From Marsupella aquatica (Eukaryota > Plantae > Marchantiophyta), in contig OZ316899.1 in the NCBI GenBank assembly GCA_973895155.1, positions 12,527,934 to 12,591,933 of the forward strand: a stretch of DNA of 64,000 bases, in the 5' to 3' direction. Within the stretch, counting starts at the first letter, position 1; each line of letters begins with the position of its first letter. Under the pieces are notes generated by a model. That model saw only the letters and a program-made list of their open reading frames with translations, searched no databases and was not told the origin of the DNA. Positions 1,073 to 52,608 of the stretch are shown here, piece after piece. The position numbers and the translations under genes were made by a program.

Positions 1073-1989
1073 TGTGGTGCGTCCCATGGCTCCCTAAACC
1101 CAAGAAACCCCCCAGCTCAAGCCGATTCCCGCAGGTTTCGCGCTTGGCGAGGCCGTTTCCGCGGCTTAGCGGCATGGGACGCTGCTAACCTTCTACTACT
1201 ACTATTAACATTTTACACACATATACTGGACAGATCCTTCATCGGGTCATGAGATACGTAGCCGGCCTAATCTAGGCCTTCCCTTGTCTTCCCCTCCGTC
1301 TTGTTAGGTATGTTTGGATTCCGCCGCCGGAATGATCCCCAATAGGCTTGGTTAAGCCGCTAAGACCTCTCTCAGCTCGACACATCCAACTCTCACTCCC
1401 CTGCTTACTTTCCTTCCTTCTGTTAGTTGATGTGGGCACTCTTCACACAAGTTAATGTGACACACAAATAGCAAAATGACTCATTCTGACTGAGTCATAC
1501 CATGCACTTGCCATACAAACAGTACATCTCATACACAAGCTCTGCAAACTAAGCCGTGAGGCCAACTCTATTCAGCTCTTAGGCATGAGGAAACATGAAT
1601 ATACACAAGGGTCACTGTATGACTAACCGAGAGCTTCCCTTACTACTTGATCCCAGCCCGGCTGGTGCAAACTAAAAACTTGCTAAAGAAGAGGCCCTGA
1701 GCTCCCCGTTGCCCAGGTACTTATCCTGGTAGTGGATCCGCCTAATTCTTTGCAGCATAAGCCTAATCTACCTAACAGTAATCTACTTGCCCGGATCTAC
1801 CTATGTACAGCAAGGCAGGAGCACAAGTGTTGCTCCTACCAGTGGAACCGCAATCCCACTAAGCTAACTGTGAGGGCCGCTCCTGGTCCTGATCCTAATC
1901 CTAAACTTGGAGATCAGCGCCCGCCCTGCCCACTCACGCCTCCTACCTCCACGTCCGCCCTTCCTAAAAGGAACGGTGCCCTTGCACCG

Positions 1990-3906
1990 TCACGACACCG
2001 GTGGTGGATCCTCAATGGACGCCCCCAACGCTTCCTCCTCAGCCACTGCCGTAGGTTCGTTTTCTGACAGATTACTTGCCTTTGACTGAGTCAACTCTCC
2101 ATCGGCCTGACTGGGTCCACCATCGGCATCGGCTCGGGAATCATTCTCGGCTACGGCCTCAGCCTCGGCTATGGTCTCCCCGGCCTGCTCAAGAGGCGGA
2201 TCTGGGATACCGGCCTCATTACTGAGTAGTTCGGCTTGGGCCGCACCATCCCCACCTTTGATGATAGCGGGATCTATTGTCGTGTTCATGCCGGAGGTTG
2301 GTGCTGGGTCTACCTCCTTGGTCACCACGGCCTGTGGAGTCAGATTACTCCTTGACCCTGAAGGTTTCCGCTTCTTCTTCTTTTCTGGTTCGGCAGCTGG
2401 TCCCTTCCCCTTCCCACTTACTTCCGGCACTGGTGCAGGTGGCGCGGCTTGTTCTTCGGCCAGTACCACTCCTGGTAACTTGGTTGCCCCAATTGGAGTT
2501 GGGCCTGATGAAGACAAGCACTTAAATACTGCGGCTTGTTTCTTCAGCCGCTCTGTTTGGTTGTCGGCCCGCCGCTGGAGGTTCTCCATCTTCCTCGTGA
2601 TTTCCTCCAACTCCTCCTGGGTCTCATCCAGGTCCTTGCGCGCCTCCTTTAGTTCCTTCTGGGCTTCCTCCCGTTCCCTGTGGGCTTCCTCCAGTTCTTT
2701 CTTCAAGGTAGCCCTCTCCTCTCGGGTTGCTCTTAGCTCCTTGTCGAGCTCTGCAATGATGACAGACTCCATCTGGTTCATCTTGGCGTAAGTCTGATCG
2801 AGCATCTCGTCCTTCTCCCTTAGGTCGGCCTTGAAGCTGGCCGTCAGGGACGCAAGCTCCTGCTGCAGCGCCATAATCCCTTGATAGGATTTCCCTAACT
2901 CGGCCTCCTTCTGCTCAAGGGCTCCGCGAATTTTCTCGAGCTCCCCCTTCAACGCCCATTCCTTTCTTTGGGTCTCCGCCATGGCCCGGCTGTTGGCTGT
3001 TATGTGGGCCTCCTCTGCATTCCTCAGCTCTCGCTTCCACTTCTCCCTCTCTTTGATCGTATCGGCCAACTCTCCTTGGGTCCGCGTCAGTAGATTCTCG
3101 ATCATTCGATTATCAGATTGTGCGGTATCCAACTGGCCCTGCATGATATTTAGCTCATGCCGCTTAATCCGCAGCTCATCTTGGGCTTTCTTGGCCACCC
3201 TCAGGTCCTTGATTTCGGCTTCCCTTTCCCTAAGCCGACGGATGACCTCGTCCTTCTTGCTTCTTTCCAAGGCCACCGCTTCTTCTAATTGGCGCTTCTC
3301 CAACATCTCCCTCTGGAAAAAGGGTCCCTGCTCCAACTCCTCCCCAAAGATGCTGAGCGCCAGTTCTCCACACATCTCCCCGTACTCCATGGCTCTGTCT
3401 TTAGCATAGGTGGAGGAAGTAGAAGTCATCGGCATCATCCACCGCGGCCTCTGCTCCCAAGCCGTCTTGCGGATCTCTTCAATCGTGGCTAGAGGTTTGC
3501 TTCCTTTTTCGGCTAGCCGCTTGATGTCCTCCGGCCAATCTCCTCCTGGCAAATCCTTTTCTCTAGCCAGGGCTGCCTCCTCTTCCTGCCTGATTTGCTC
3601 CTGAAATTCCTGCGCCGTCTGTTTTATGCCGTCAAAGCTCGGGGGAGCAACATCTGGTGGGGGAGACTCAGGGCTACTCTGCTGGTTGGGGTCCCCTCGT
3701 ACTACTCTTGGAAGTGTGGGGATAAACCGGCCATAGGTCCTTACTCCTGGAACGTGATGGTCCGACCCATAGCCGGAGTTATCATGGCTGCAGTCCTCCA
3801 CTGCCTCCTCTACTTCTTGGACTTCCGGCTTCTCCCTCTCCTCTTCGTCCGTAGGAGCTTCAGGCAATTCTGCCTCAGATTCAGAGCTTGAGACTCCTAC
3901 GTACAT
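1990..3906 (-). CDS. LTR-encoded protein, C-terminal part (638 aa): long coiled coil, KKKKRK motif, acidic tail
   Basis: Entirely inside the LTR. In frame with 3925-5634, separated by a single TAA followed by SKPGVR. The copy at 59483-60073 reads through this junction without a stop. Confidence 0.8.
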   Translation of the reverse strand: MYVGVSSSESEAELPEAPTDEEEREKPEVQEVEEAVEDCSHDNSGYGSDHHVPGVRTYGRFIPTLPRVVRGDPNQQSSPESPPPDVAPPSFDGIKQTAQEFQEQIRQEEEAALAREKDLPGGDWPEDIKRLAEKGSKPLATIEEIRKTAWEQRPRWMMPMTSTSSTYAKDRAMEYGEMCGELALSIFGEELEQGPFFQREMLEKRQLEEAVALERSKKDEVIRRLREREAEIKDLRVAKKAQDELRIKRHELNIMQGQLDTAQSDNRMIENLLTRTQGELADTIKEREKWKRELRNAEEAHITANSRAMAETQRKEWALKGELEKIRGALEQKEAELGKSYQGIMALQQELASLTASFKADLREKDEMLDQTYAKMNQMESVIIAELDKELRATREERATLKKELEEAHREREEAQKELKEARKDLDETQEELEEITRKMENLQRRADNQTERLKKQAAVFKCLSSSGPTPIGATKLPGVVLAEEQAAPPAPVPEVSGKGKGPAAEPEKKKKRKPSGSRSNLTPQAVVTKEVDPAPTSGMNTTIDPAIIKGGDGAAQAELLSNEAGIPDPPLEQAGETIAEAEAVAENDSRADADGGPSQADGELTQSKASNLSENEPTAVAEEEALGASIEDPPPVS

Positions 3907-3924
3907 TCGAACACCCGGCTTGGA

Positions 3925-5634
3925 TTATGGCCTCTCCTTGTCTCCAGTAAAGGGGTTTTCCCTTGTAAGCCGGTGTAGGCCTACCTCTGGAGCAGTGTCC
4001 TGCATTGTTGCCATTGTCGTTGCCGATGTCGATCTCTTTTCTTTCTCCAGTAGTTTCAGCAGATTTTGCATGCCTGGTTGCTGCATCGGCAAGTCCTCCG
4101 TCCTTGGCCTAAACACCTGCTCGATCGTAGGGCTAACAGGTGGTTGAGGCTTCTCTGCTACCGGCCTCGGTGCTGGAGCTTCCTCGGGTGCCCTTACCTG
4201 TAGGGGAAGTACTGGGGCAAAGGTCTGACCTCTGGCATACCGGCACAACAGCGGCATGTGATAGCCAAGCTGCGACACGCTCCCCATGCCGATTACCTGC
4301 TGCTCCTCCTTTAAGATCTTCTTCAATTGGTTGAGGAGGTACCCGTTGTAGTCCCGGCTTGGGTCTGGCCTCTCTGCCAGATAGACCTGTGCCTTGCCGA
4401 TCTCTGCCCTTGGCAAGTTACAGTGCATGGTCACCCTCAAGAAGTCGATCATCTCTCCTATGTGCGGGTTGGTGCAGGTGTTCCGGAAGAAGCCATTCTT
4501 CGTTGATGGCCCGGGGAACGACCGGAACTCCTTGTCAGGCAAGGTCTTCCTGGTATCAACTTTGATCTTATTGCCTATCGGCAAGCCAAACACTTCGGCA
4601 ATCACCTTGGGAGTAAGATAGAAATCCTTCCCATATATCCTCGTGCAATTGGTCTCGGGTTCCCATGACCCCACGAATTCTAATAGGTCTGAATCCGGCA
4701 CCTCCAGCTTCAGCCATGGTAATCTTACAAAGGCCTCTAAGCCGGATCCGGCCATGAAGCCTTGGTACTTCTTGGTTTGCATGGTCGTAAAGCATGCATC
4801 CTCCTCCCGTGCAAAATGTAGTTGCACCTCCACCGGTAGGGTTGCCGCCCAGCCTTTCCAGGTGTCATCCCTGGTTGGAATGGCCTTGATGGGATCGACC
4901 TCCTCCTCTTCGGCTTCTCCCTGCCTCCTGCTCTGCTGCTCGGTTGGCTTCTTTGGTGCCGCCGACCTCGTTCTTTTTGCCGGGGTGGCTTCATCGTTGA
5001 CGGCTCCCTTCCTCTTCATCTCTGCTGCCGTGGAGGTTTCTCCTAGCACCGTTGCCTGGGTCCACCTTTCCGTGCTACCCTTTAATTCCCAGTGTATGTC
5101 GTTGCAGTTCTTGATGGCGTCTCGAATGCCGATGATGTTGTCTTTGCAAAATAGAAGATCGTCGAGCTGATTGGAAGTAGGAGTCCACAAGAACTCGTCC
5201 TTGATGAGTTCGCCTCCTAAGAAAGCCGTCTTCTGCAGCTCCCACAATTGAGCGAGCTCCTGCCGTTCTCGAGCTGCCCTTTCTGATTCCTCGTCCTCGT
5301 AAGTCTTGATGTACTCAGTTTCCCGTTCGAACAGGCATCCCCAGAAATGTGCCGCTTGATTGACGTTGCTCATACCCTCCTTAGGTCGATCGTCGGTATC
5401 TACTCTCTCCCCGAGTGCTTGCCTAAGCAGCTGACAGTAGTTGGCCTCCCGTAGTCGTCTGCCTAGTTCGTGCTCGCAAATGAGCCACCATTTCTTGCAA
5501 GCACTCCTTACCCCTCTCCTCTTCCGGTCCTTCCTCCCCTTGATCCTTCCTAGCCGCCGACGCTTAACGTGCCCTAACCCTAATTGAGTTTTCACCCCCA
5601 ACTTCCTTACCTCCAGCCTCGGCCCGGGTTCCAT
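3925..5634 (-). CDS. LTR-encoded protein, N-terminal part (569 aa; likely true start MSNVNQ at 5373), with a plant-retroelement extra-ORF-like core domain
   Basis: Entirely inside the LTR. Motif GLEAFVRLPW...LLEFVGSW...RIYGKDFYLTPKVIAEVFGLP is conserved across the A-family copies and similar to the ORFs in LTRs B and C. Confidence 0.8.
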   Translation of the reverse strand: MEPGPRLEVRKLGVKTQLGLGHVKRRRLGRIKGRKDRKRRGVRSACKKWWLICEHELGRRLREANYCQLLRQALGERVDTDDRPKEGMSNVNQAAHFWGCLFERETEYIKTYEDEESERAARERQELAQLWELQKTAFLGGELIKDEFLWTPTSNQLDDLLFCKDNIIGIRDAIKNCNDIHWELKGSTERWTQATVLGETSTAAEMKRKGAVNDEATPAKRTRSAAPKKPTEQQSRRQGEAEEEEVDPIKAIPTRDDTWKGWAATLPVEVQLHFAREEDACFTTMQTKKYQGFMAGSGLEAFVRLPWLKLEVPDSDLLEFVGSWEPETNCTRIYGKDFYLTPKVIAEVFGLPIGNKIKVDTRKTLPDKEFRSFPGPSTKNGFFRNTCTNPHIGEMIDFLRVTMHCNLPRAEIGKAQVYLAERPDPSRDYNGYLLNQLKKILKEEQQVIGMGSVSQLGYHMPLLCRYARGQTFAPVLPLQVRAPEEAPAPRPVAEKPQPPVSPTIEQVFRPRTEDLPMQQPGMQNLLKLLEKEKRSTSATTMATMQDTAPEVGLHRLTRENPFTGDKERP

Positions 5635-5737
5635 GGTCGCCCCTAATTGTTTATATTTTCCTTGTTTTGTCCCTATACTAAGGTGTTTCTAGGGTGCATT
5701 CCTGCTTTACCCACTTAACTGGCCGAGTGATTCCTGT

Positions 5738-6856
5738 CTAGGCATCACATAGCTCCCCACTTAATTGTGAAGCGTCCTCGCGAACAACTTCATCTTCGTC
5801 CATATAGTATTTCTTGAGGCGGTCATAATGGATGCGAACTGGATATACTTCTCCCGTAATGTTGGCCAATTGTACGGATCCATTGGAGAACTTCATGGTT
5901 ACTCTAAAGGGTCCTAACCAGCGAGTGTAAAGCTTTCCTGGAAACTTACTATACCTACTGTCATAAAGTAACACAAGATCACCGGTGTGAATACTAACTA
6001 CTTTCAACTTTTTATCATACTGCTGCTTCATGATATTCTGTCTATATTCTACTCTCTCGGCTGAAATCATTCTAGCCTCCTCTAAAGCTTCTAACCTATG
6101 TTCTCGCTCCTTTAGGCTCTCCTCCGCTGAGGCTCTTTCCTCAATTGTAACTTGAAATGTCGGTATCTCAAGTTGCATGGGTACCAGGGCTTCTTGTCCA
6201 AAGGTTAAGAAGAAGGGTGTATGACCGGTAGTGGATTTATAGGCTAGATTGTAAGCAAAAACAACAGCAAACAATTTATCATCCCAATCAAGTTTGTTCT
6301 GAGCTACTGTCTTGTTCAATATCTTTCCTATAATTCCGTTTGCTCGTTCTGTCAACCCATTTGCCTTTGGATGGTAGGGAGTAGTAGGCCTATGTCTAAC
6401 TAAATACTGCTCATTTAAACGACTAATTATATCATTCAGAAAATGGGTTCCTCTATCACTAACTAATTCTAGGGGTGCTCCATACCTGGTGAAGATCTGC
6501 TCATACATGAATCTAGCCGTAGTAATTGCATCATCCTTCGTGGTCGGTCTGGCCTCTACCCATTTAGTTGCATAATCCGTAGCCAGGATTATGTACTTGT
6601 TCCGTCGAGGGTGGGTCAGTGGTTTCAGAGGTCCGATGTAATCAATACCCCACTTCTCGAATGGTGCCAGAGGTAGAATAGGGTGCAGTGGATGTCTGGT
6701 GGACGCCATTGGTCCTCCCGCTCGTTGACAAGGATCGCATTGTTTGATAAACTGATAGACATCCTTGTGCAAGGTGGGCCACCAGTAACCGGCATTTAAT
6801 ATCTTTTTAGACGTGGTTACTGGGGCAAAATGTCCTCCGGCCTCCTCTCCATGCAT
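5738..6856 (-). CDS. Gypsy integrase of A (pol fragment)
   Basis: HHCC zinc domain (H-GHF...CDPC), rve core (WGIDYIGP, SDRGTHF, ANGLTERAN) and C-terminal WLGPF motif. No chromodomain. Confidence 0.95.
   Translation of the reverse strand: MHGEEAGGHFAPVTTSKKILNAGYWWPTLHKDVYQFIKQCDPCQRAGGPMASTRHPLHPILPLAPFEKWGIDYIGPLKPLTHPRRNKYIILATDYATKWVEARPTTKDDAITTARFMYEQIFTRYGAPLELVSDRGTHFLNDIISRLNEQYLVRHRPTTPYHPKANGLTERANGIIGKILNKTVAQNKLDWDDKLFAVVFAYNLAYKSTTGHTPFFLTFGQEALVPMQLEIPTFQVTIEERASAEESLKEREHRLEALEEARMISAERVEYRQNIMKQQYDKKLKVVSIHTGDLVLLYDSRYSKFPGKLYTRWLGPFRVTMKFSNGSVQLANITGEVYPVRIHYDRLKKYYMDEDEVVREDASQLSGELCDA
5750..5764 (-). other. Polypurine tract of element A
   Basis: Minus strand reads TAAGTGGGGAGCTA immediately before the TG of the 3' LTR. 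Confidence 0.7.
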
Positions 6857-6868
6857 GGCCCGTAGGAC

Positions 6869-8104
6869 TCATTTTACCTCTCCCTTTTCCAAACACCTTT
6901 GAATCGTGCCGTTGATTCCATGCTTGTGCAGTATGCCTTTAATGCACTGATACTGTCTGACCTTCCGCACAAAGACTGCGGCTTGTTCTCGGCTTAATCC
7001 TGGCTGTAATCTGGAAGTGCTGAGAAAATGTAAAATCTCAGGGTACCATGTATCAGCTATTTCCACAACGAATAGCTCCTCGTCGGGGAATCGATCATCG
7101 ATGCAATCCGTGGCAGGTTCACCTGTGATTCTTGAAAAAAAATCGGCATTGGCATGTAATTTTCCCGGCTTGATCCTCAGCTCATAGTCAAACTCCTGTA
7201 ATAGCAAAATCCATCTTGCTACTCTGCCTGTAAGGTCCGGCTTATTGACTAGGTACTTCAAACTTTCATGATCGGTATGAAAGATTACCTTGTACCCTAG
7301 TAAATAATGCCTAAACTTTTTACACAAATAAATGACTCCTAATGCTTCCCTCTCTGTGGTGGAGTAGTTCCGTTCGGCATCGGCAAGCTGACGGCTTGCG
7401 AAGTATATAGGATGGTCCCTTCCTTTCTCATTTAACTGACTTAGTACTGAGCCGATACAGAAGCCCGAGACATCTACAAAAACATGAAAATCTTTGTTCC
7501 AGTCCGGTGCTATCATGACTGGGGCCTCTACTAACATCTGCTTCAATTCTACCACTGCTGTGACTCGTTTGGGTGTGGGTTCGAAGTCTGCTCCTGCCTT
7601 GAGCATGTTGGTTAATGGTAAAGCTAGCTTGGCAAAATCCTTGATGAACCGGTGATAGTAACCAATGCATCCCAAGAAGGATCTTACATCCTTTATGTTC
7701 TTAGGTTGCATGATATCTAGCCATACTGCTAGCTTACCTTTGTCAATCTCAATGCCCTTCCTTGATACCTTGTGACCTAGTAGCACCCCCTCGGTTACTG
7801 CAAAGAAACATTTATCTGGGTGTAACTTGAGACCCACCTCTCTGCATCTCATGAAGGTTTTTCTGAGATATTTAGCATGTTTCGATGCCTTCCCGAATAC
7901 TGCAAAGTCATCAATGAAGATTTCCATGAACTTTCTCAAGTAATCATGAAAAATGTTCACCATCAATCGTTGGAACATAGCTGGTGCGTTGCAGAGTCCA
8001 AACGGCATACGATTGAAGACATAGATCCCCCATTCCGTGATGAAGGCCGTCTTGATTTGGTCTTCCTGCCGAATCCTGATTTGGTTATAACCAGAGTACC
8101 CATC
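6869..8104 (-). pseudogene. RT C-terminal half and RNase H of A
   Basis: MPFGLCNAP, FIDD, VDVS, NYSTTEREALG and HTDH motifs. Frameshift near 8010-8060. Interrupted at DGYSGY by solo LTR B. Confidence 0.93.
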
Positions 8105-8463
8105 TGTGACGCCGCCGGTACGGCGGTTAATGAGTGATTCGGTTTAACTGCGCTCGGCACGCGCGTTAGGAGTGTCTTAGGCCGCTATTATTAGCATAAC
8201 GACAGTATTTAGGTAATCATTATGGGTAGGATATCATTAGGCAATAAGGGGGAATTCAGGTTCGGACTGGCGGCTGGTCGCTATTCGCACACCCGGGTTA
8301 CGAGCGTGGAGGGGCCCCTCCCTCGGGTCCGTATAACAAACTTAAGGAAGCGGCCACTGACACGCGCTGACTCAGACCGGCGGAGTGGCCGACACACCAC
8401 AAGCGTGAGCGGTTCAGCCTATGGGCGTCGAGGAGACGTCGGGGGATCGACAAGCCCTCAAGG

Positions 8464-8470
8464 TATAAAA
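8464..8470 (+). promoter_or_regulatory. Putative TATA box of LTR B
   Basis: TATAAAA about 100 bp upstream of the ATG at 8569. Confidence 0.5.
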
Positions 8471-8568
8471 GGGGAGCCAACCCTTTGTAGTGCACCAGTC
8501 CATTAGTCCACGCGCCAGCTTCGACCCTAGCTCTCTCGTTCGCTCTAAGTCGCCACTATCTCCTCTGA

Positions 8569-10524
8569 ATGTCGCACACGATCCTCTCCAACTCGGCCAT
8601 TCGATTCTGGACGCAGTTCCTATCTACCGGAAGGCACTTGGCCGACTCATTGAAACACGCCAACCCGCGCCGATACAAAATCGAACGCGAGTACGAGAGA
8701 GCCATCCTCCTAGCAGGACGACACCACTACATCCTTAACTTTGACTACCCGTCTCAGAGCGAGCTTTATCGACCAGCAGAGGTATCCGCGTACTTCTTCA
8801 GCGGAGACAAATATATCGGGTTCTGGGAAGCATTGCTTCGGCTTCCGGACGAGGTCTTCAATATCCCGGGTATGATCGACTTGCAACGACATCACTTTGA
8901 CCACATCCCTGCTCAGGTTCGGGCTATCATCAACAGCGAGTCCAGCACAACCCGTTCGACAAGGTCGTCTGCACTCGCTTCGGAGAACTTCTACCAGCAC
9001 CTACAGAGCTTCATAGGAACTCGGCCAGCAACCAACATGACCAACTCAGTCGTACCCGTACCCGTACCCATACAACCTCAGGCTCAACTTCAGCTTCAGC
9101 CGCAGCCTAGCCAAACCCCACCACCGATCGCCCAGCCAGCACAAGTACGCTCCGTCATCAACGCTGTGGATCTTAGCGATGACGACGAGGCTACCCTACC
9201 CTTGACCAGGCGGCCCAGAGGAACAAGCGCTCAGGGGGCCGACACTATATCGTCCCCACCCCCTGCTCTGACCCCAGGAGCGGCCCCGGCAGACAACATG
9301 GTGACCGTGGCCGACCCGGGCCCGTTACTAACGGCAGCGGCACTACCCAGGCCCGATCGGGAGGATGGGGAGGTGTCACCTTCCCCGAGCCAGTCACGGG
9401 GGAAGAAGAGGAAGGAATCCGCCACTGCATCCGGGTTACCGTTGGCCACGGTAGCCGTGGCCAAGGTGACGATGCACCGCATGGGGGAAAACATTCACAA
9501 AAACATCCTCCATCCCAAGCATGCGGTGTACCTGAAGACTCAGGGATTCGAGCACCTCGCCTCCCTCCCCTGGAACACTTGCAGGTACTACGGGGAGGAC
9601 ATGACGGAGTTCGTCAGGAATTATGACGACGCGCGTCAACATACTCGGCTGCAGGGAAGGAGTATGTCCCTCACAAAAGAACGGCTCAGGATGATCTTCG
9701 AGTTACCCGAAGGTGACCATCGAGTCGAATCACGGGCTCCCGGGGGCAAGGGAGCCAAGTACCAATCTTCAAGTTTTCCCTCAGAGGGAGCAGTGGACAA
9801 CGGGTTCGTGATGAAGACCTGCCTCATCCCTGAGATAGCTGAGCGACTGGAGTTCCAGAGGTATGCCCTCCACATGATGGAACCCCGGGGGGAGATCTCC
9901 GCCGCCCAGGTTATCCAGGTCGAGAACTATCAACCTAGGAGGTGGGCGTCGTACTTTGCTAAGAAATTCCATGAAGAGATGGAGCGGCGAAGGAAGACGC
10001 TGTACATTGGCGGGAAGGCGTATTTTGCTAGCCACATCGAGATCATTCTTGAGTGGTACGCCCGGTTTGATCGACGAACCCTTCCCCGTGTCAACGTTAC
10101 AAAGCTGGTCCCAGCTAGGTGGGTTTTCCCGGCCTTGGAGAGACGGCCCCAACCCGAGCCCCGAAGTCCAGCGGACACGCCAGCTTCACCCACCGCACCT
10201 CCACAAGTAGCTGTAGTCGTAACCAAAGAGGTACCGGATGGGTCGGTTGTCGCAACCGTTGATGCGACCCAACAAGCCGGGCTAAGTACAGAAGTCGGTA
10301 CGACGGAGGTCTTACCCGAGCCAGGGTCTCCCAAAGACCCACCGGTGGCTATTCCGGAGAACCGGACATTGCTGCAGGAGGACACTCCAGCCCTTCCAAC
10401 GTTACGTCCTCAGGGCTGGACGTCACTGCCCCGGCCCCCGCGCGTGTTGATGTCTGCCCGTGCCCAACTCCGGACAGGCACAACCTGGACCACCCGGAAC
10501 TCTTCGTACCGGGTACATTTCTGA
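8569..10524 (+). CDS. LTR-B-encoded protein (651 aa), homologue of the A LTR protein
   Basis: GFEHLASLPW...MTEFVRNY...TRLQGRSMSLTKERLRMIFELP...NGF...C..PEIAERLEF...PRGEISAAQV aligns by eye with the A-LTR protein. Contains GKKRK. Confidence 0.8.
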   Translation: MSHTILSNSAIRFWTQFLSTGRHLADSLKHANPRRYKIEREYERAILLAGRHHYILNFDYPSQSELYRPAEVSAYFFSGDKYIGFWEALLRLPDEVFNIPGMIDLQRHHFDHIPAQVRAIINSESSTTRSTRSSALASENFYQHLQSFIGTRPATNMTNSVVPVPVPIQPQAQLQLQPQPSQTPPPIAQPAQVRSVINAVDLSDDDEATLPLTRRPRGTSAQGADTISSPPPALTPGAAPADNMVTVADPGPLLTAAALPRPDREDGEVSPSPSQSRGKKRKESATASGLPLATVAVAKVTMHRMGENIHKNILHPKHAVYLKTQGFEHLASLPWNTCRYYGEDMTEFVRNYDDARQHTRLQGRSMSLTKERLRMIFELPEGDHRVESRAPGGKGAKYQSSSFPSEGAVDNGFVMKTCLIPEIAERLEFQRYALHMMEPRGEISAAQVIQVENYQPRRWASYFAKKFHEEMERRRKTLYIGGKAYFASHIEIILEWYARFDRRTLPRVNVTKLVPARWVFPALERRPQPEPRSPADTPASPTAPPQVAVVVTKEVPDGSVVATVDATQQAGLSTEVGTTEVLPEPGSPKDPPVAIPENRTLLQEDTPALPTLRPQGWTSLPRPPRVLMSARAQLRTGTTWTTRNSSYRVHF

Positions 10525-10577
10525 ATGGGCTTCTGGGAGATTTCTCTCATCAAATTGCCCGGGATACCGGGGAGTTC

Positions 10578-11198
10578 ATGGCCCGAAAGGTAGCTTGTTT
10601 CTTCAATCAGGAGTTGGTTGCCACAGTAAAGGCAGGTCGGGCCCAGTCAGAGGCCCTTCAGAGAATAGAGCGGTACCGAGTGGAGTCCGTGTACCTAAAG
10701 AACAAAGTTGCGGCTCAAGAGGCTGAGCTTCTGCAACTACGACCCAAGGTTGCAGCCGCCAATGAGTTGTTAGCAAAGGCGCACGCTCTTACCGCCCTAG
10801 CCGAACAGGCCAAAGCTGGGAACGAGGCCGAGATTACACGACTCCGGAACCAGATTGACAGTTTGAAGAATCAAACTGTCACCTGGCAGAAAGACCTGGA
10901 GGAGGCCGAGGAACGGGCCCAACGGGACACGGCGGAGATAGCCACGCTGCAGACCGAGGTGGTGCGGCTCCAAACCGAGGCCGAGAAGCAGGACCAGCTG
11001 GCGGGTAAACTGACAAGTGACGCCCAGCAGCTGGAGGAGGCTTGTCAGGAGGCAGCAGAGGAGACGGACGCGGCGAGGCGAGAGAACGAATCTCTGCTGG
11101 ACCAGGTCCAGCTCCTCAAGGCGGACAATGACAGGCTTCGAAGGCAGCGGGATGGCCGCTCCCATTCGGGCGGCTCTGGCAAGCGTGCCAGGCATTAG
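10578..11198 (+). CDS. Coiled-coil C-terminal part of the LTR-B protein (probably joined by a frameshift at about 10300-10520)
   Basis: The frame is open upstream to at least 10341. ARDTGEFMARKVACFFNQEL resembles AMEYGEMCGELALSIFGEEL, which precedes the coiled coil in A. Confidence 0.7.
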   Translation: MARKVACFFNQELVATVKAGRAQSEALQRIERYRVESVYLKNKVAAQEAELLQLRPKVAAANELLAKAHALTALAEQAKAGNEAEITRLRNQIDSLKNQTVTWQKDLEEAEERAQRDTAEIATLQTEVVRLQTEAEKQDQLAGKLTSDAQQLEEACQEAAEETDAARRENESLLDQVQLLKADNDRLRRQRDGRSHSGGSGKRARH

Positions 11199-12094
11199 CA
11201 GCGGAGTAGGAATAGATTAGGATTAGGACTGGCTTAGTCAGGCTCTTGGGACAGGCACCTGCCTTAGGTACAGCAGCGCTGCCGTGCTGTCCAGCCTGCG
11301 TAGATTAGGATCTTCTAATAAGACACAGCCGTTTTCCGGCCTGACTGTCAGCTTAGTTAGGACCTTAGTCAGCGAATCTTCGGCGAGAGGACACCCCGTC
11401 CCTCGCCCCTTAGTATTTAGTGCACCCCTCGGTAGAGGCAGGGGGGTTTTTAGTTGCAGAGTTGGGCGTCCGCGGTATGTGCGTGGAGTCCCGACCTCTG
11501 GGAATGAAAGAGTACCAAGGGGAGGGGGTAGGACTAAGCTCGCCGGGCGAGTGCGGAGCCGGGCTCCGTTGTAGTGTGCACCCTCGGCCTTGGACCTGTT
11601 CATTCCGGGGCTGTCAGGTCAACTAAGTGTACACATATGTTCCCTTTGTAGTAAAATCCTTTCCCATCATTTTCCTTCGTGTAAATCGAGATTGTATGCA
11701 TGTGCGCGTGTATGTGTGTGGGTTTCTCGTATATGGGTGGCAGCGCCAGGCCGAACGCACTACCCGAGACGTGCACAGGGTGCAGCCTGCGGGTAAGTGG
11801 TTGCGAGCACGGGTTGAGGACCTGTATCATCGAATCCGGATCGAAGGCGGACAGCACGAAGGCTTAGAAGCCCTTAAGCCGGGGTTGATCCTGCTATCGA
11901 CTAAGGTACATTCCGGCGGCGGAACACAAACCATACCTAGGAGGTGTCCGTATTTAGCAGTATGCGCACTTAGCGCTAGTTTACGAGAATAAGGTGCATT
12001 ACGTGCTTCCCTTCCTGCCCGAACCCTCAGATTTACGAGGGATGTGCCCGTCTAAGCTGAAGTTTGAGTTAAGGCCGCAGCCGATGACGTGACA

Positions 12095-12999
12095 CCATCC
12101 ATGAATGAATATAGTTCATGACTGGCTACCATGTCTAGTACCATATCAGTAAAGGGTAAGGGAAAATGGTCTTTTAACGTTGCTTCATTCAGCTTCCTGT
12201 AATCTTGACAAACCCGGATCTTGGGTTTACCATCGGGTCCAGCTTTCTTGGGAACTATCACAATTGGAGACACCCAGTCTGAATGTAGGACTGGAGTGAT
12301 GAATCCAGCTTCCACTAGTTTGTCGATTTCCATTTTGACCAGCAGGGAATACTTCGGGTTCATCCTTCGAATTGGTTGTCGAAATGATTTGGCTCCTAAC
12401 ATGAGATCAATTCGATGTTCCCCTAATGTTGGATCTACTCCCTTTAGATCTTGGTGACTCCATGCAAACACATCCTGAAATTCAATCAATAAGTCACTGA
12501 TCTCTCTCTCGAGCTCAGGTGCTAGGTTTCTCCCTAAGTTTAGTTCCCTTCCCTCTCCTAAGTTGAGCTTCCGATATTGCCGTGCTTGGATCATATTAAT
12601 CTGCTTCTTCAAATTCGGGTCCAGCTCGGCGTCCAATCTCTCCAGTCTCATACCTCCATAAACTGGAATCTCGGCTGTACTAGCCGAGTCGGTCTCTTCC
12701 TTGGTGTCCATAGATTGTCCCCTTGCCGGTTTATCCGGTTTTGAATTGGTGGTCGGCTTCCCTTCCTGCCTCGGCTCTGGATTCTGTCTGTGCATCTCAT
12801 CCACCTCTTCCTCCTGAGGGTCAGTCCGCTGTGCTCTCCCGGCTTCTAATAGGGCCTCAATTTGTTCTGCCCTCGTAATCGGCTTGTATGCCGATCCCTT
12901 GGTATTTAATTCCTTGCCGATGATCGATGGCGTTGTGAACCCTGCCGGCTCTACCACAACGCCTGCAGAAAATCCACTGTCCCTGCTACTGCTCCCCAC
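12095..12999 (-). pseudogene. RT N-terminal half of A
   Basis: WVSPIVIVPKK, IRVCQDYRKLN, KDHFPLP and YSFMDG, ending at the B insertion. Confidence 0.93.
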
Positions 13000-13319
13000 T
13001 TAGCCGTTTTATCCAATTGGTCTACATACTTTACTTCCTCTGGAATTGCAGCTAAAAAGGTGGATTCTATTGTAAAGCAGTCCTTGACCTCTTCGTCTTC
13101 TTCTTCCAAGTCACCTTCCATTGGTTCTTGCCATAATCCGCTGGGGGGTACCTCCGGTCCAAAGACACTTTCTTCGGTTAGGTCAGTGAGGCATTCTAGC
13201 CAACGGACTTCATCGGCTGACTCCAGTCCACTATCGTACCCGTCTACCTCCCTGATGCTTTTCCTACGGTCATCCTTAGTGTCCCAGGATACCGTGATAG
13301 AGGGGGTCCCGAAAGTGAA

Positions 13320-13853
13320 CTACTTTTTACCCCAATCTTCTATTACCTCGGCTAGGTATAGCCACGGCCTACCAATCAATAGCCGGAATGACGTAGGATT
13401 TACCGGCTTCATTACTACATAGTTAATGCTAAAAAAAACACCTCCTATCTCTGTCTTGATGCCGGTTAACACTCCCGTGGGAATGACCTGATACCCATTG
13501 GCCATGTTTAGCACTCTTCCAGTCATCTCTAGTGTTAGACCCCACCCTTTTGCTATTGAATCAATCATAATACATACCCCTGATCCTCCATCGATGGGTA
13601 CCCGTAGTAATAATTCTCCTTGAATCATTAATGGTAATGCTGGGGCTCCTTGATCTTCTTCTATCATTAGTACGTCGGATCTGGTCGCTACCTTGGATAA
13701 TCTCGGCTTGTCGAGAATAGCCTTCCTTAATTGCTTCCGGAAGTACGGGCTATTTTTCAATAGTTGACCAACTGTTGCCGAGACTCTAGACTCTAGTACA
13801 TCTTTAGCCAGGTCATAGGGAACAATCGGCTTCTCCTCTGGTGGTGTCTCCAT
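13320..13853 (-). pseudogene. Aspartic protease region of A
   Basis: IDGGSGV catalytic motif and LLIGRPWL. Confidence 0.85.
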
Positions 13854-14186
13854 CTTGGATTCGGCCTATTTTGCCACGCTAGTCTCCACAGCTGTTGGAT
13901 CCTCCAAAGCAAACAATGCTTTTGCTCGTTTCACATCCTTGGCAATGGCTTCGGTATTCTCCAGGGTTTCTAATTCTCTCAGTTGTTCCTTAACACTAGC
14001 CGTAACAGAGGGGTAGAACAACTTAGGATGATCTCGATTGAAGTCGCTATCTTGTGAAGGATTGGGTTCACTGGTGGGCTCATGGCTTACCTGTATTGCC
14101 GGAGCCCTCCCTTCTCCTTCCGTTGATGTTGACGAAGAGTCGATCTTTTCCTCCGTAACCTTCCCTTTATTTTTGGCCAGCCCATC

Positions 14187-15898
14187 TCACCTTTCCTTCC
14201 TTCTGGTAGATCGAGTAGAGACCCGGTAGCAATCATGATCTAAATCCTCTTCTGAGAAGGTTGATAGGGCTTCGGCCTCATCATCAAATGGTACAAACTC
14301 TGCCTCGGCATCCTCTTGCCATCCTAGTTTGATGTGGTTGATTTGAACTCCTCCGGGGGTAGTACCTGGCGGTAAGACCTTTACTGGCAAAAGTTTATGA
14401 TTTGCGGCCAGGCCTGCCACCCAAGTAGGACATTGCCCTAGCATATGACCTTCCTGTCGGCATCCCAGACATAGCTGAGCTGGTTGTCCATCACCCTGTT
14501 TGCGTGCATTCGGGCATTCTCTAGCAAAATGGCCAGGTTGACCACAATTATAGCATGCCGCAAATCTTTGCACATTCGGCCTAGGAGATACTGACGGGTT
14601 CTGAATAATCCGAGGATACATCTCTCCTGGATTGTTCCTTAATCCTGACCACATGGATGCAGGTCTGTTGGATAGGTCTCGTGCTCCAGTCTCACTGATG
14701 CCGAAAACACTATCAGCGGCATCTCCTAAAAAGTACTCTACTTCTCCCTAACATGGTCTGATCTCGGTCACATGCCGAACATGATTAGTATTAAGTTTAG
14801 GACACGCATCTTTATGGTGTCTGGTTTTATAACATAAGGCACACCATACAGAGCTATCCTCCTGTACTACCTTCTTCTTCGGCTTTACCTCTGCAATTAT
14901 AGCCTTAAGTTGCTCGATAAGGGCCACGATGTTATCTGTGGCTTAGCCTCCAGCTTGACTTTCGTCTTCCCTCTCCTTCTGCCCTTCCTTTTCCTAGTTT
15001 TTTCTTCTTCAGAACTAGAAGATGACTCACTCTTGCTACTTCCACTATCCGAGCTTGAGTTATCACTTCTTGACTTCTTAGAATGTTTCTTCTTCTTATC
15101 TTTTTTTTTATGGGGAGATCCCTCCTCTGATGAGGAACTCTCAGACTTAAGCTGTTTCTTCCGGCTTGTGATATCTGCATTAATGTATAATTGAATATCC
15201 TTAATTGCATCGGCTAAAGTCTCCGGGTTCTCCTTCCTAATTGCAAAACTCATCTTCTGTGGCAAAGCATTCACCAACCATTGAAGTTGCATACCTTCAG
15301 ATGCATTGGTCTTTGTACGTCTTACCAGTTTCTGAAAGCGTTGCAAGAACTTCCTGAAGGATTTGTTCTCCTTGAACCGAAGTCGTCCCAACTTCAGCAC
15401 TGCTAGTTCTGAAGTTCCAATGGGTCAAAACTCCTTAACAAAGAGTGTTTTGAAGATATCCCAGATGGCTTGATCTTCCACATCTAATGCTCTGTACCAA
15501 GGCCTAGCCTCACCCTTGAACAGGCCGGGAAGAATCTGCATCTTGATGGCCGATTCTCCATTTGCTGCAGCGGTTCCCTTGAAATCATCCAACCATTCGT
15601 CCGGATCCTCATCTCCTCTCCCATGAAATGCCTTGTAATGTATGCGCGACCGTTGGCTCAGTCTGGTCCCTGGCCTCTCGTCTGGCCGTGCCTCTGGTTC
15701 CCCCATGTCGGTTGGAGACTCACTTCTCCTTACCGACTCTTCTTCTGGTATGTCTTCTTCGACGCCACTTCCAGCTTCGGAGCTACCAGCTCTTTCTGCC
15801 CCTCTCAGTCGCTGTGTATCATGCCACTCGGCGAGCTGCTGCAGTCGAGCTCTCTCCCGTTGAATCACTCTTTCTTCCCTCGGTGTAAGGTCAGTCAT
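14187..15898 (-). pseudogene. gag of A (frameshifted) with three CCHC zinc knuckles
   Basis: Retrotrans_gag-like FHGRGDEDPDEWL...GEARPWY. Knuckles CALCYKTRHHKDAC (about 14800-14845), CYNCGQPGHFAREC and CLGCRQEGHMLGQC. Confidence 0.88.
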
Positions 15899-15945
15899 TA
15901 CCTACGCTTCCTTTTTAACTTCATATCTCACGGCTTAAGAAATGC

Positions 15946-15963
15946 CCCCTCCATCTAGCGCCA
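15946..15963 (-). other. Primer-binding site of A
   Basis: TGGCGCTAGATGGAGGGG, 4 nt after the CA end of the 5' LTR. Resembles the TGGCGCTAGA-type PBS of plant Tat-like elements. Confidence 0.75.
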
Positions 15964-15967
15964 AAAA

Positions 15968-18737
15968 TGTGGTGCGTCCCATGGCTCCCTAAACCCAAGA
16001 AACCCCCCAGCTCAAGCCGATTCCCGCAGGTTTCGCGCTTGGCGAGGCCGTTTCCGCGGCTTAGCGGCATGGGACGCTGCTAACCTTCTACTACTACTAT
16101 TAACATTTTACACACATATACTGGACAGATCCTTCATCGGGTCATGAGATACGTAGCCGGCCTAATCTAGGCCTTCCCTTGTCTTCCCCTCCGTCTTGTT
16201 AGGTATGTTTGGATTCCGCCGCCGGAATGATCCCCAATAGGCTTGGTTAAGCCGCTAAGACCTCTCTCAGCTCGACACATCCAACTCTCACTCCCCTGCT
16301 TACTTTCCTTCCTTCTGTTGTTGATGTGGGCACTCTTCACACAAGTTAATGCGACACACAAATAGCAAAATGACTCCTTCTGACTGAGTCATACCATGCA
16401 CTTGCCATACAAACAGTACATCTCATACACAAGCTCTGCAAACTAAGCCGTGAGGCCAACTCTATTCAGCTCTTAGGCATGAGGAAACATGAATATACAC
16501 AAGGGTCACTGTATGACTAACCGAGAGCTTCCCTTACTACTTGATCCCAGCCCGGCTGGTGCAAACTAAAAACTTGCTAAAGAAGAGGCCCTGAGCTCCC
16601 CGCTGCCCAGGTACTTATCCTGGTAGTGGATCCGCCTAATTCTTTGCAGCGTAAGCCTAATCTACCTAACAGTAATCTACTTGCCCGGATCTACCTATGT
16701 ACAGCAAGGCAGGAGCACAAGTGTTGCTCCTACCAGTGGAACCGCAATCCCACTAAGCTAAGTGTGAGGGCCGCTCCTGGTCCTGATCCTAATCCTAAAC
16801 TTGGAGATCAGCGCCCGCCCTGCCCACTCACGCCTCCTACCTCCACGTCCGCCCTTCCTAAAAGGAACGGCGCCCTTGCACCGTCACGACACCGGTGGTG
16901 GATCCTCAATGGACACCCCCAACGCTTCCTCCTCAGCCACTGCCGTAGGTTCGTTTTCTGACAGATTACCTGCCCTTGACTGAGTCAACTCTCCATCGGC
17001 CTGACTGGGTCCACCATCGGCATCGGCTCGGGAATCATTCTCGGCTACGGCCTCAGCCTCGGCTATGGTCTTAGGGTTTAGGGTCGGCAAGTCTTCCTTC
17101 CTTGGCCTAAACACCTGCTCGATCGTAGGGCTAACAGGTGGTTGAGGCTTCTCTGCTACCGGCCTCGGTGCTGGAGCTTCCTCGGGTGCCCTTACCTGCA
17201 AGGGAAGTACTGGGGCAAAGGTCTGTCCTCTGGCATACCGGCACAACAGCGGCATGTGATAGCCAAGCCGCGACACGCTCCCCATGCCGATTACCTGCTG
17301 CTCCTCCTTTAAGATCTTCTTCAATTGGTTGAGGAGGTAGTCCCGGCTTGGGTCTGGCCTCTCTGCCAGATAGACCTGTGCCTTGCCGATCTCTGCCCTC
17401 GGCAAGTTACAGTGCATGGTCACCCTCAAGAAGTCGATAATCTCTCCTATGTGCGGGTTGGTGCAGGTGTTCCGGAAGAAGCCATTCTTTGTTGATGGCC
17501 CGGGGAACGACCGTAACTCCTTGTCAGGCAAGGTCTTCCTGGTATCAACTTTGGTCTTATTGCCTATCGGCAAGCCAAACACTTCGGCAATCACCTTGGG
17601 AGTAAGATAGAAATCCTTCCCATATATCCTCGTGCAATTGGTCTCGGGTTCCCATGACCCCACGAATTCTAATAGGTCTGAATCCGATACCTCCGGCTTC
17701 AGCCATGGTAATCTTACAAAGGCCTCTAAGCCGGATCCGGCCATGAAGCCTTGGTACTTCTTGGTCTGCACGGCCGTAAAGCATGCATCCTCCTCTCGTG
17801 CAAAATGTAGTTGCACCTCCACCGGTAGGGTTGCCGCCCAGCCTTTCCAGGTGTCATCCCTGGTTGGAATGGCCTTGATGGGATCGACCTCCTCCTCTTC
17901 GGCTTCTCCCTGCCTCCTGCTCTGTTGCTCGGCTGGCTTCTTTGGTGCCGCCGACCTCGTTCTTTTTTCCGGGGTGGCTTCATCATTGACGGCTCCCTTC
18001 CTCTTCATCTCTGCTGCCGTGGAGGTTTCTCCTAGCACCGTTACCTGGGTCCACCTTTCCGTGCTACCCTTTAATTCCCAGTGTATGTCGTTGCAGTTCT
18101 TGATGGCGTCTTGAATGCCGATGATGTTGTCTTTGCAAAACAGAAGATCGTCGAGCTGATTGGAAGTAGGAGTCCACAAGAACTCGTCCTTGATGAGTTC
18201 GCCTCCTAAGAAAGCCGTCTTCTGCAGCTCCCACAATCGAGCGAGCTCCTACCGTTCTCAAGTGCCCTTTCTGATTCCTCGTCCTCGTAAGTCTTGATGT
18301 ACTCAGTTGCCTGTTCGAACAGGCATCCCCAGAAATGTGCCGCTTGATTGACGTTGCTCATACCCTCCTTAGGTCGATCATCGGTATCTACTCTCTCCCC
18401 GAGTGCTTGCCTAAGCAGCTGACAGTAGTTGGCCTCCCATAGTCGTCTGCCTAGTTCGTGCTCGCAAATGAGCCACCATTTCCTGCAAGCGCTCCTTACC
18501 CCTCTCCTCTTCCGGTCCTTCCTCCCCTTGATCCTTCCTAGCCGCCGACGCTTAACGCGCCCTAACCCTAATCGAGTTTTCACCCCCAGCTTCCTTACCT
18601 CCGGCCTCGGCCCGGGTTCCATGGTCGCCCCTAATTGTTTATATTTTCCTTGTTTTGTCCCTATACTAAGGTGTTTCTAGGGTGCATTCCTGCTTTACCC
18701 ACTTAACTGGCCGAGTGATTCCTGTCTAGGCATCACA
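15968..18737 (-). repeat. 5' LTR of A (2770 bp, about 1.9 kb internal deletion)
   Basis: Same termini as 1073-5749. Lacks the segment equivalent to about 2178-4085. Confidence 0.95.
16884..18622 (-). pseudogene. Deleted and frameshifted copy of the LTR-encoded gene
   Basis: Frameshift near 18260. The N-terminal part is fused in frame to the acidic tail through the filler-encoded TLNPK. Confidence 0.85.
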
Positions 18738-19190: not shown

Positions 19191-22100
19191 TGTAGAGTAG
19201 GGTTTAAGGAAATATGAATTACTTTCCTCTTAAACAACCAGAATTCATTCTCGTTAAGAGCTTGTGAGACCTAAAAGATTGTATTAATATACTTTGAGAT
19301 AGTTAAGCTAACCTATCTCAGATTTTAAGCCTTTACCAACATGCTTAGGTCAGGTGGAAGGAGTTTTTAATACATCCTCAGGTATTGTGATGTTTGTATC
19401 ATCAACAGTGCAATAATCAATTCTAAAAATATAATAAAACAACCAAAAGCCGGAGGCGTAAAGAGAGGATTAGGCGAGCCTTAAATGTCTCATCTCCTCT
19501 CGCCACTTAGCAATCTGTGACTAAGTTAGGCATGATTAAGAGTCAACAGAGAGTCTGACAAAATTAGGCTGATGCCTAAAGCTCATCTTTAAAGCCAACC
19601 ATCTAAGAATTTGTAAAAGATGCATATAAGATAGCCCGTATTAACTTTCTGACCTATGTCAAGACAAAGGTGGTACTGATTACTTCGAACTAACTTATTC
19701 TTCTATTCAATCCTTCGGATTGCTCTTTTAGGACTACACAATTTGTGAGTTCTCGTATGGTGCTTCTTCCACTAATACTTAATAAGCCATAAGTATTCCA
19801 TAGTCAACATGAATCTTTAGACCTTTGCATGGACTCAGGCATGCATTTCCAGTCAGCCTAAAGGTTAACTATGACATTGCTAGTCACTTTCCATAGATTT
19901 TCTAGCAAGAATGGTCACACACTAATGTCCAAACACAAAGCATAGATCACCAAAATTATGAATCTATTACTTCTCTTCAAAGAAGGAAACTTTCAAAAGT
20001 GAAATGCAAGTCTGAGTAAAATGGTGGAAACTTTCCCTCTTATACTTAGGGACAAGTCTCCTCTAAACAAAAGTTGAAGAGGTATGCCCCTTCAATTCCT
20101 AATCTAAGTGTAAAAGTAAAAAGTAATGCTAAAGTCTGAAACTAGACTATGAGATAAAGTGCTCAGCAAAAATTCAAAGTCTAATTCTTCCTATACTAAG
20201 TTTTATAGGGCTTCAAACACGAAACAGGATCAAAAACCGGGTGGGAAACCGGATGGGAAGCCGGTTCAACTTCCGGATGGAATAACTTTTTACTCTTCAA
20301 GAGTTGAAGTGTCAGGCTTCACCGACGTGGAGTCTACTGCTGGATCAATGGAGTTGAGAGGGTTTGGCATGAAAGTGATACCTCCAAAGGTAATAGTAAA
20401 TGGTGAGGTCGGAATGGGTGGAAAATTGGGTGTAACTGTGGTAGAAGTAATATCAGGATCAGGAGAGTCAGCCCATCCTTCTGCTGGTGTCACCTGTGGG
20501 GATGGAACAGTGACTTTCTCTGCAAATTGAGTCTGCTCCTCATCAGAAAGGTCATAGAATTTTTTCAGTTCAGCAAGGATAAGCTTGAGGGCAGAGAGGC
20601 ATTCTTCCACCTTGTCACCATAGTCATGTGCAATTTGGATGACTAAGGGCATGAGAAGGGGATTGGGAACATCAATGAAGTACTGCCTGAATAGTTGGGT
20701 CTGTACCAGGTCCTCTCCCTTGGTTTCTACTAAGGGTTCCAGGTGATCCATAGCTCTGGAAATGTTATCGAAGAGTAGTTGCTCCGCTGTGGTCTTCTCC
20801 TTTGCCTTGTGCAGCAACTGTTCAAGATGATAGTTCTTCTTCTTCTTCTCTTCCTCTAATGATTTCTCTAGCTGCTCAATCTTGAACTTGTTCTCATCTC
20901 CTTTCATCAGGTCCTCCACTTTCTTCACAAGGTCAGCAGGAGCCACACTAGTCACCTGGGAGAGCCTTGAGAGCACTGGTTCCATGATTCCCATCTTGGT
21001 CTTGATGGTCGAAAGATCCTTGAATAAACAAGAAAAATGGTGTAAGGTAGAGTGTGAAAGACCGGCTGAAGAGGTAGTAGCGCCACTCATCGGGTAGGAA
21101 ACCGGGTCAAAAACCGGTTCAGAAGCCGGTTCAGTTTTGTCGAGCTTCCTCTTCTTGGTTGGCCCTACAAAGTTGATCTCTTCCGGCTCTGGGTCATCTT
21201 CAGACTCTGGTAAGCTCTGAATTTCTGGATCCAAGACTCCATATTTCACATAGCTGCTCTTGGTGCCAAATGCACTCTTCTCATGTTTGAATAAGGTTTG
21301 GTCATGAGAGTATAGATGTACCAAGTAACAGGAGAGAGCAGTGGGGGCTCTGTTGGACAGGGCGGAGACCTGCTTCTCTAGAACACTTGAGAAGATAGTA
21401 GCCCATGATACCTCTCTGGTTTTGAAGAAGGAAGCAATGATAGTACTTCCTACTTTAAGAATCACCCTCCTTGGTTTCTCTGGATAGATGAGGGGGACTA
21501 GGAATGCCATCACGTTCCTGAGGTCCTTGTGAGTACACTGGTTGATGGTCCATCCTTCTTTGGCATCCATCTTGCCACCAAAGTATTCCACTGTGAGATT
21601 CTCTCCTCTGGGGCAGAAGCCACTCCCTTTCACTGGTAGCTGAAAAGCTTCTCCAACGAATGCCTTGGTCCAAGCTTCTGGTCGAGCTCGTGCAGTCTTC
21701 TGAAATTCTGTGGGAGGAACTCCTGCCAGCACTTCCCTTACCATGTCTTCACTCAGAAATCCCCAAGTAAGATCCATCAAGGAGGCACAGCCCATTAGTG
21801 TAAGATCTTTTCGGAGCTGTTCCTTCTCAGCTGCATCAGTAGGAATGAGGGGTCTCAAGGGCTTCATGGTGATCTGAGCCTCCTTCCTCTTTGAACATCG
21901 TACTTCAGGCTTTACTGGAGTCCCACTCTGAGTCTTGGAAGAAGGACTGCTCTTGGCACTCTTCATACTGCCTGGTAGTTGGAGTAGCAAACAGATTTGA
22001 ACCGGTGAAGGCAGAAGGTAGGAGCTAGAAGTGAATATAGCCTCTATAATTACTCCGTCGCGTATATCAGCCAACCTTCTCCATCTCAGCACACTTTCAG

Positions 22101-22809
22101 CGAAAACAAACATCCAGCAAGCGAGATATAGCAGAAACCGGTTTGCCACCGGTTCAGTTCCAGTTCAGAAACCGGCTCAAGCCCTGGAAGTAGACAACTA
22201 TCAAAACAGGGGGCCTTAGCGCCAATCTCCACATCCCCAGCCTTCCTTCCAAGCGTAGGAGTAGGCTGCCACCTCACACGAGTCTGTCAAGGATCTCTTA
22301 TATCTTTCTCTCACAGAAACTAGAATGGTCCTATAATCCGGACCCAAGATCCTCAACCGGAAGGGAAGAGCCTCCTTTCTCTACTGCTTCGACAAGCCTA
22401 TTCACTCGGGAGCTCAAAACTTACTCTGTTCAGCTTTGAGAGGTGTGAGAAGAGCAAAACCAGTTCGTCCTTAAGAGGGATTCCGGCTCACTGTCAGGAG
22501 TCCAATGCTTATGGGTTTTCCCCATGACAAAGAGCGTAGCCTCGGCTTCAAGAACCTGGTGTTAGATTTTCTTGATAGCGTCCGGAGACGATTTTATGGC
22601 TTCCAGTTCGTGGTCCGGTTTCCTTCTCTTTACCAAGAAATACTTTCTTCCGATTGAGCCTCTTTTCCTTCTCTTAATCTCTTGAATGGTTGTTAGACTT
22701 TCAATAATGGTTTGCTTAGCATTTAAGGTTCTTCTTTCCCGCTTCAAAGGCAAAAAAAATTAAATTTTTCCACTTTCTTTATTCCTTTCTTCTTAACCAT
22801 GTTATCACA
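19191..22809 (-). repeat. 5' LTR of element C (3619 bp)
   Basis: TGTAGAG...TTATCACA on the + strand, adjacent to the PBS. A-family LTR sequence resumes abruptly at 22810. The partner LTR is outside the window. Confidence 0.8.
20290..22149 (-). CDS. LTR-C-encoded protein (619 aa; likely ATG at 21966, 558 aa), distant homologue of the A and B LTR proteins
   Basis: Intact ORF inside the LTR: GCASLMDLTW...MVREVL...WTKAFVGEAFQLP...KEGWTINQCTHKDLRNVMAFL...PRRV, then KKRK and a coiled coil. Confidence 0.78.
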   Translation of the reverse strand: MANRFLLYLACWMFVFAESVLRWRRLADIRDGVIIEAIFTSSSYLLPSPVQICLLLQLPGSMKSAKSSPSSKTQSGTPVKPEVRCSKRKEAQITMKPLRPLIPTDAAEKEQLRKDLTLMGCASLMDLTWGFLSEDMVREVLAGVPPTEFQKTARARPEAWTKAFVGEAFQLPVKGSGFCPRGENLTVEYFGGKMDAKEGWTINQCTHKDLRNVMAFLVPLIYPEKPRRVILKVGSTIIASFFKTREVSWATIFSSVLEKQVSALSNRAPTALSCYLVHLYSHDQTLFKHEKSAFGTKSSYVKYGVLDPEIQSLPESEDDPEPEEINFVGPTKKRKLDKTEPASEPVFDPVSYPMSGATTSSAGLSHSTLHHFSCLFKDLSTIKTKMGIMEPVLSRLSQVTSVAPADLVKKVEDLMKGDENKFKIEQLEKSLEEEKKKKNYHLEQLLHKAKEKTTAEQLLFDNISRAMDHLEPLVETKGEDLVQTQLFRQYFIDVPNPLLMPLVIQIAHDYGDKVEECLSALKLILAELKKFYDLSDEEQTQFAEKVTVPSPQVTPAEGWADSPDPDITSTTVTPNFPPIPTSPFTITFGGITFMPNPLNSIDPAVDSTSVKPDTSTLEE

Positions 22810-43858: not shown

Positions 43859-44407
43859 GGAGTACTACTGGTCTGGTGAAGGAACTCCTTAAGTAGCAAC
43901 AATCTGGATGTCAATGGATGAGGCAGTTTAGTGATTTGGCTAGGTTATAGTCGCTTTGTGGTGGACATGCAATGTGCTTTGTAGGACCTTTGTATCTCTA
44001 TATCATACTGAATCTGAATAAAGACTCCCTCATGTTTTTCATTTTGAATGCATGTGCCAATTAATGTCACCACTGTCATTAACATCGCGCGGATATAGTA
44101 ACGTTGCAATACACGACGTCTTTGGTTTAATACGTACCCTAAAACAACGTAAGTTAGTTTAATGTCGTTTTAAGTGGAGAATCAACGTCGTGTGGAGTAA
44201 CGTAAACTGGGTCGTGGCTAAATTAACGTCTTTGAAGGCTCAATAAAACGACGTTAATTGGAATTAACGTCTGGCTGGTACGACGTAGTTTGAAGATACA
44301 TTGGTCTACCGAACGTAATAGTCATACAACGACGTTACCCACAGATGCTACAAACCCACATGAAGGTGGCCATAACAAATATATACATGCACTGAATACA
44401 TTTATGG

Positions 44408-50475: not shown

Positions 50476-52608
<2,133 letters not shown>

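Follow-up and report, generated by a model that had tools for sequence, protein, structure and literature searches.

An LTR-resident gene with a predicted VANC/PMD-like core in Ty3/gypsy retrotransposons of the liverwort Marsupella aquatica

The family B unit and the element that hosts it

Within a 64,000-nt stretch of Marsupella aquatica contig OZ316899.1 (positions 12,527,934 to 12,591,933 of the forward strand, hereafter the window), three diverged element families, designated A, B and C, carry a version of the same gene inside long terminal repeats (LTRs) or, for B, inside a unit that is very probably a solo LTR. The family B unit occupies positions 8105 to 12094 of the plus strand, measures 3990 bp, starts with TG, ends with CA and is bordered by the target-site duplication (TSD) CCATC on its left (8100..8104) and right (12095..12099). 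Contigs from all four sequencing runs bridge positions 8099 and 12095, leaving five bases ambiguous, and so establish both the boundaries of the unit and its TSD; they represent the unoccupied insertion site in further copies of the host reverse transcriptase (RT) gene. No gag or pol similarity was found inside the unit, as the earlier note on this DNA had stated along with the length, termini and duplication. Short contigs matching a 5-kb stretch numbered 9,681 and 14,543 in two runs, an abundance which is not a copy number but is as expected of highly repeated families. In contigs of two runs, position 11286 of B is joined back to the start of B (8104), as an insertion of B into B would give.

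The interrupted RT gene belongs to a complete minus-strand Ty3/gypsy element, A, which has the TSD GGGAC at both outer ends. Its internal region (5750..15967) comprises a primer-binding site (PBS), a zinc knuckle, RT, RNase H, integrase and a polypurine tract, the PBS being a PBS-like TGG sequence adjoining the 5' LTR and the purine tract preceding the 3' LTR. The 3' LTR (1073..5749, minus strand) is 4677 bp long and the 5' LTR (15968..18737, minus strand) bears a 1.9-kb internal deletion. Both LTRs contain a gene homologous to that of B; in the 3' LTR it is represented by two minus-strand open reading frames (ORFs; 5376-3925 and 3906-1990) in the same frame with one stop between them, a junction which is read through in another A copy (ORF 59459-60073). 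The closest named relatives of the RT-RNase H of A are found in Riccia, at 47-54% identity, and in a tree of 29 rows A stands apart from the angiosperm rows, its lineage not being fixed.

The two LTRs of A differ unevenly: substitutions affect 38 of 1654 positions towards the 5' end but 9 of 1104 towards the 3' end (Fisher P 0.003). Among their coding differences dN/dS is 0.37; together these values suggest conversion or recombination with another copy, not plain ageing. A further LTR copy of A harbours a tandem duplication of about 750 bp (58766-60271).

That the B unit is a solo LTR, as the earlier note had held, and one of a Ty3/gypsy family is very probable, and recombination between two LTRs would have left it behind. 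The assignment is sustained by its termini, its 5-bp TSD and its homology to the LTR of A, which involves both the protein (E 5e-19) and a 31-nt DNA motif. No full-length B element was observed, and scans of viral and metagenome collections with either the protein or the shared motif turned up no locus, so that some other TG..CA mobile unit sharing the gene, either a non-autonomous element moving as a whole or a DNA element, has to be considered. Such a unit is highly improbable: B has no long terminal direct or inverted repeats, its TSD has the same length as that of A, and its gene order, orientation, 3' tail of about 900 nt and 31-nt motif are those of the proven LTR of A.

The gene, its relatives and its predicted fold

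The B gene starts at position 8569, 105 nt downstream of a TATA box (TATAAAA, 8464..8470, plus strand) which is the sole TATA match in the unit and is followed by no ATG before 8569. The placement reported in the earlier note holds. When the 464-nt leader was shuffled 5000 times, 4.2% of the shuffled sequences contained a TATAWAW. The box would drive the gene, and the reading of the B unit as a self-contained expression cassette is plausible. The first ORF runs from 8569 to 10524 and encodes 651 aa. It opens with an N-terminal helical domain of about 110 aa (8569..8925, plus strand), termed FW, which is common to A and five further database clusters and for which no fold match was found. A KKRK run (9403..9414, plus strand) is a candidate nuclear localisation signal; P0153, a database protein of 906 aa, also has basic residues at the corresponding point of the alignment. 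The 207-aa conserved core follows (9475..10095, plus strand), and the C-terminal coiled-coil part (10525..11198, plus strand) is out of frame in the present copy. The layout of the gene is FW domain, linker, core, linker and coiled coil.

The earlier note had listed a 651-aa ORF plus a frameshifted coiled-coil ORF, a description superseded by the comparison with P0153. This protein holds all the blocks in a single ORF, and its matches to the two B frames have E values of 7e-86 (first frame) and 6e-15 (second frame). The ORF pair is, on this alignment, one gene broken by a frameshift in the present copy, which therefore encodes at most a truncated protein lacking the coiled coil. The lesion lies in the overlap of the two frames (10263..10524, plus strand), where one-base length differences occur in contigs of all four runs. 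The share of depth differing by one base is about 1% in run X1, 47% in X2, 89% in X5 and 35% in X6, and because these shares vary so widely the frameshift may be widespread within a portion of family B. The 40 variant sites listed, out of 594, include 22 within the gene, and at 12 of those the change is silent when the inferred frame is read. A programmed frameshift was set aside, since the relative is a single ORF and other copies differ by one base within the overlap.

In the core, B and A are identical at 63 of 232 positions (27%, E 5e-19). Of the three protein blocks which the earlier note had matched by eye, the core is thereby confirmed, whereas GEF..FFNQEL against GEM..IFGEEL gave E 11 against A and has no significance. 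The pairwise comparison of the FW block is weak (E 0.085), but the block is supported through intermediates: with a profile built without A, the two copies of A score E 2.6e-6 and 1.7e-4. The coiled coils match at E 9e-4 only. At the DNA level the termini of B largely differ from those of A, as had been claimed, with the exception of a 31-nt motif near the 3' end (11909..11939, plus strand), which includes a 5-bp hairpin, is 90% identical to A and recurs in the 3' part of both A LTRs. In X6, the most distant run, contigs match around this motif (11904-11937) and then run loose for 255 nt, hinting at further families that carry it.

Family C supplies the third version of the gene. Its LTR (19191..22809, minus strand), next to a PBS-like TGG sequence, contains a 607-aa gene (22113-20290, minus strand) with the same core and no FW domain; the TATA box lies after the gene in C and before it in A and B. 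When 1.84 billion proteins were searched with a profile of four cores from the window, 197 relatives emerged at E<=0.001, and 7 of the 20 looked up derive from the liverwort Calypogeia fissa, the sole organism named. Word-seeded protein searches gave no match for the B core, nor any for the alignment when confined to proteins 1587-4530 aa long, a range ill suited to the purpose.

Selection on the gene was estimated between two A subfamilies. The dN/dS ratio is 0.10 in the core and 0.21 in the coiled coil, with 0.92 and 1.17 in the shifted frames, and these values indicate that the A core is under purifying selection. Codons 1-86 of A have a ratio of 1.6 and Met87 aligns with the start of B, so Met87 is probably the true start of the A protein. 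The earlier proposal of an LTR-resident gene under long-term selection is supported by this constraint and by the homologues in the LTRs of A and C.

The 207-aa core has a confident predicted fold (pLDDT 95). Its best structural match is VANC21, a plant transposon protein, which aligns over 195 of the 207 residues and scores 5 Z units above the next chain, placing the predicted structure within the VANC fold. DUF1985 and PMD also come up in an independent search by features, where one cluster with 14% PMD members serves as a lead only. The core is accordingly predicted to share the VANC21/DUF1985/PMD-like DNA-binding fold. Profile searches gave no match to DUF1985 at E<=0.1 among window proteins or at E<=0.01 among 76 relatives, and none to PF10536 (PMD) in either set. 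For PF20167 (Transposase_32), the family of Athila-type ORFs, there is a weak profile hint: it matched one of the 76 relatives at E 0.006, short of the cut-off; the core profile does not recover three known PF20167 stretches, and an hhalign comparison of the core with Transposase_32 reached E 8e-4 as a pairwise value, with a probability of 25% over 63 columns and a reversed control of 0.5.

CpG words, possible function and known systems

A VANC-like system predicts a family-specific word within the encoding element. Over whole elements, A contains 31 occurrences of AAGCCG where 7.4 are expected, and C contains 14 of AACCGG where 1.7 are expected. The enrichment in A extends into gag-pol, where its CpG word was counted 22 times against 6.6 expected. 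A[AT]GCCG has a density of 3.8-5.7 per kb in every one of the seven A segments, compared with 0-1.1 per kb in the eight other segments; this word exceeds synonymous-codon shuffles in four of five A coding segments, integrase being the exception, and AACCGG does so in the C gene (5 against 0.7). Both words contain a CpG that is kept in CpG-depleted coding DNA, and for that reason they fit protection from methylation.

These observations, taken with the predicted structure, are consistent with the gene encoding an LTR-borne, self-recognising anti-silencing factor of the VANC/PMD fold, a reading in which moderate confidence is placed. The protein would enter the nucleus by means of its basic runs, oligomerise through the coiled coil and bind a short family-specific CpG word scattered over its own element, likely countering host silencing, so that word-bearing copies would be protected or relieved of silencing in trans. 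Residence in the LTR would double the dose of the gene per element and allow it to persist after the host removes gag-pol; because the gene stays behind in this way, solo LTRs that are intact would go on providing the protein. Several results weigh against this reading. The best word of B itself, ACGCGC, is not significant. The words were picked on the same data, and they are no longer significant against a background of order 3, although such a background takes up part of their signal. A Transposase_21 region and a 2.2-kb insert in the window have CpG words of their own with no detectable core gene. Finally, no long tandem arrays of words were found: the repeats in B are only short (6-13 bp), and the word of A is dispersed. 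In the non-coding parts alone enrichment is marginal, the best P values of 0.025-0.045 being uncorrected over 12 tests.

The same structural, selection and word evidence would also be produced by a DNA-binding gene of this fold which acts as an ordinary trans-activator, or as a chromatin or integration tether, and leaves silencing marks in place, as a shared fold does not show a function. MAIN and MAIL1 were first described as silencing factors (PMC5418596), so the effect could run in either direction. This alternative is nevertheless considered unlikely: the enriched A and C words retain their CpG where coding DNA is otherwise depleted of it, and those relatives of the fold that have been tested counteract silencing where the DNA bears their motif (PMC5735166; 10.1101/2024.09.27.615353). 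A different possibility is that the accessory gene is real but its likeness to VANC is remote or due to chance, the CpG words being due to something else, for instance a factor of the host or a protein whose gene lies elsewhere, and the product having a role in RNA export, particle structure or nuclear import. The breadth of the match, clear of the next chain and to a plant transposon protein at that, and the independent listing of DUF1985 and PMD both speak against a chance resemblance, and this explanation, too, is thought improbable.

If the anti-silencing reading holds, a broader scenario may be entertained tentatively. Liverwort Ty3/gypsy elements would have moved a VANC-type, sequence-specific anti-silencing gene into the LTR, each family would have written its own CpG recognition word throughout the element, gag-pol included, and solo LTRs would be standing trans-acting sources of anti-silencing. 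The VANC/PMD system would then be a retrotransposon invention of early land plants rather than a DNA-transposon novelty of eudicots.

Comparison with the VANC proteins of Arabidopsis VANDAL (MuDR) DNA transposons, for which sequence-specific anti-silencing has been demonstrated, shows both likenesses and departures. The fold of VANC21 (structure 9LNJ/9LNK) is alike on prediction, the protein is likewise encoded by a transposon, short family-specific words occur in the encoding element (here in A and C), and a coiled coil is part of the same protein; coiled-coil oligomers of VANC are predicted in PMC13547354. However, identity to the core studied here is about 10% with no Pfam match, the words of VANC elements form non-coding tandem arrays whereas those described here are dispersed and partly in coding DNA, and the liverwort proteins of A and B carry the extra N-terminal domain. 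According to the same paper, PMC13547354, VANC is dicot-specific and MuDR-borne; the present genes lie inside retrotransposon LTRs of a liverwort.

PMD (PF10536; PMD-A in Gypsy elements and MAIN, MAIL1 and MAIL2 in hosts) offers a second parallel, being likewise an extra ORF of Ty3/gypsy elements. Of Ogre elements, 57% carry it (PMC6317226), and it is related to VANC by structure (10.1101/2024.09.27.615353). PMC5418596 describes the known PMD-A clades from angiosperms and leaves open both what the PMD-like ORFs of Gypsy elements do and how they are related by descent to the MAIN/MAIL genes of the host. The genes of the window differ from PMD-A in having no PF10536 match, in lying within the LTR and in being retained by solo LTRs. 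The additional ORFs of other plant Ty3/gypsy elements (Athila env-like/ORF1, Retand, Grande and Retrosat2 ORF0) resemble the present gene as conserved accessory ORFs, often with a coiled coil. Those reviewed (PMC7264820, PMC3485330) belong to the internal region, where they lie either ahead of gag or downstream of pol and before the 3' LTR, and not inside the LTR as here.

Coding capacity inside LTRs is familiar from animal retroviruses, where mouse mammary tumour virus (MMTV) encodes its superantigen there and nef of human immunodeficiency virus (HIV) overlaps U3; these proteins are unrelated to the present one and the LTRs are much shorter. No description of a VANC/PMD-fold gene inside plant LTRs was found in the literature searched, whose scope excluded supplements (the eORF tables of PMC6317226 included) and the VANC21 structure paper.

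Solo LTRs are usually seen as the dead residue of host purging, and the proposed function would make them active trans-acting sources. It would also change what solo-LTR formation means for an element, the replication genes being lost and the counter-defence gene kept. With three diverged pairs of protein and element in the window, two of which have a candidate target word, the idea is directly testable in vitro and in Marchantia, and new programmable word-binding demethylation factors would be useful for plant epigenome editing.

Other elements of the window

The C LTR (19191-22809) is inserted in a fragment of an A LTR. The C internal region seems to be interrupted by A and to continue from 1072 (31-948); the 299-aa ORF there matches no Pfam family. 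ORFs of a LINE-like RT and zf-RVT at 25062-28107 served as a control for the word tests, and an inverted repeat at 29317-30306, whose arms measure about 340 bp and are 94% identical, is possibly MITE-like. The Transposase_21 region, which is CACTA-like, spans 43000-57180 and has the words ACGACG, AACGTC and ACGTTA. The 2.2-kb insert lies in an A LTR copy (61545-63770), shows no significant core-gene match and no clean TSD, and has TGAGG..CCTCA ends and the words TTCGAA/TCGAAA.
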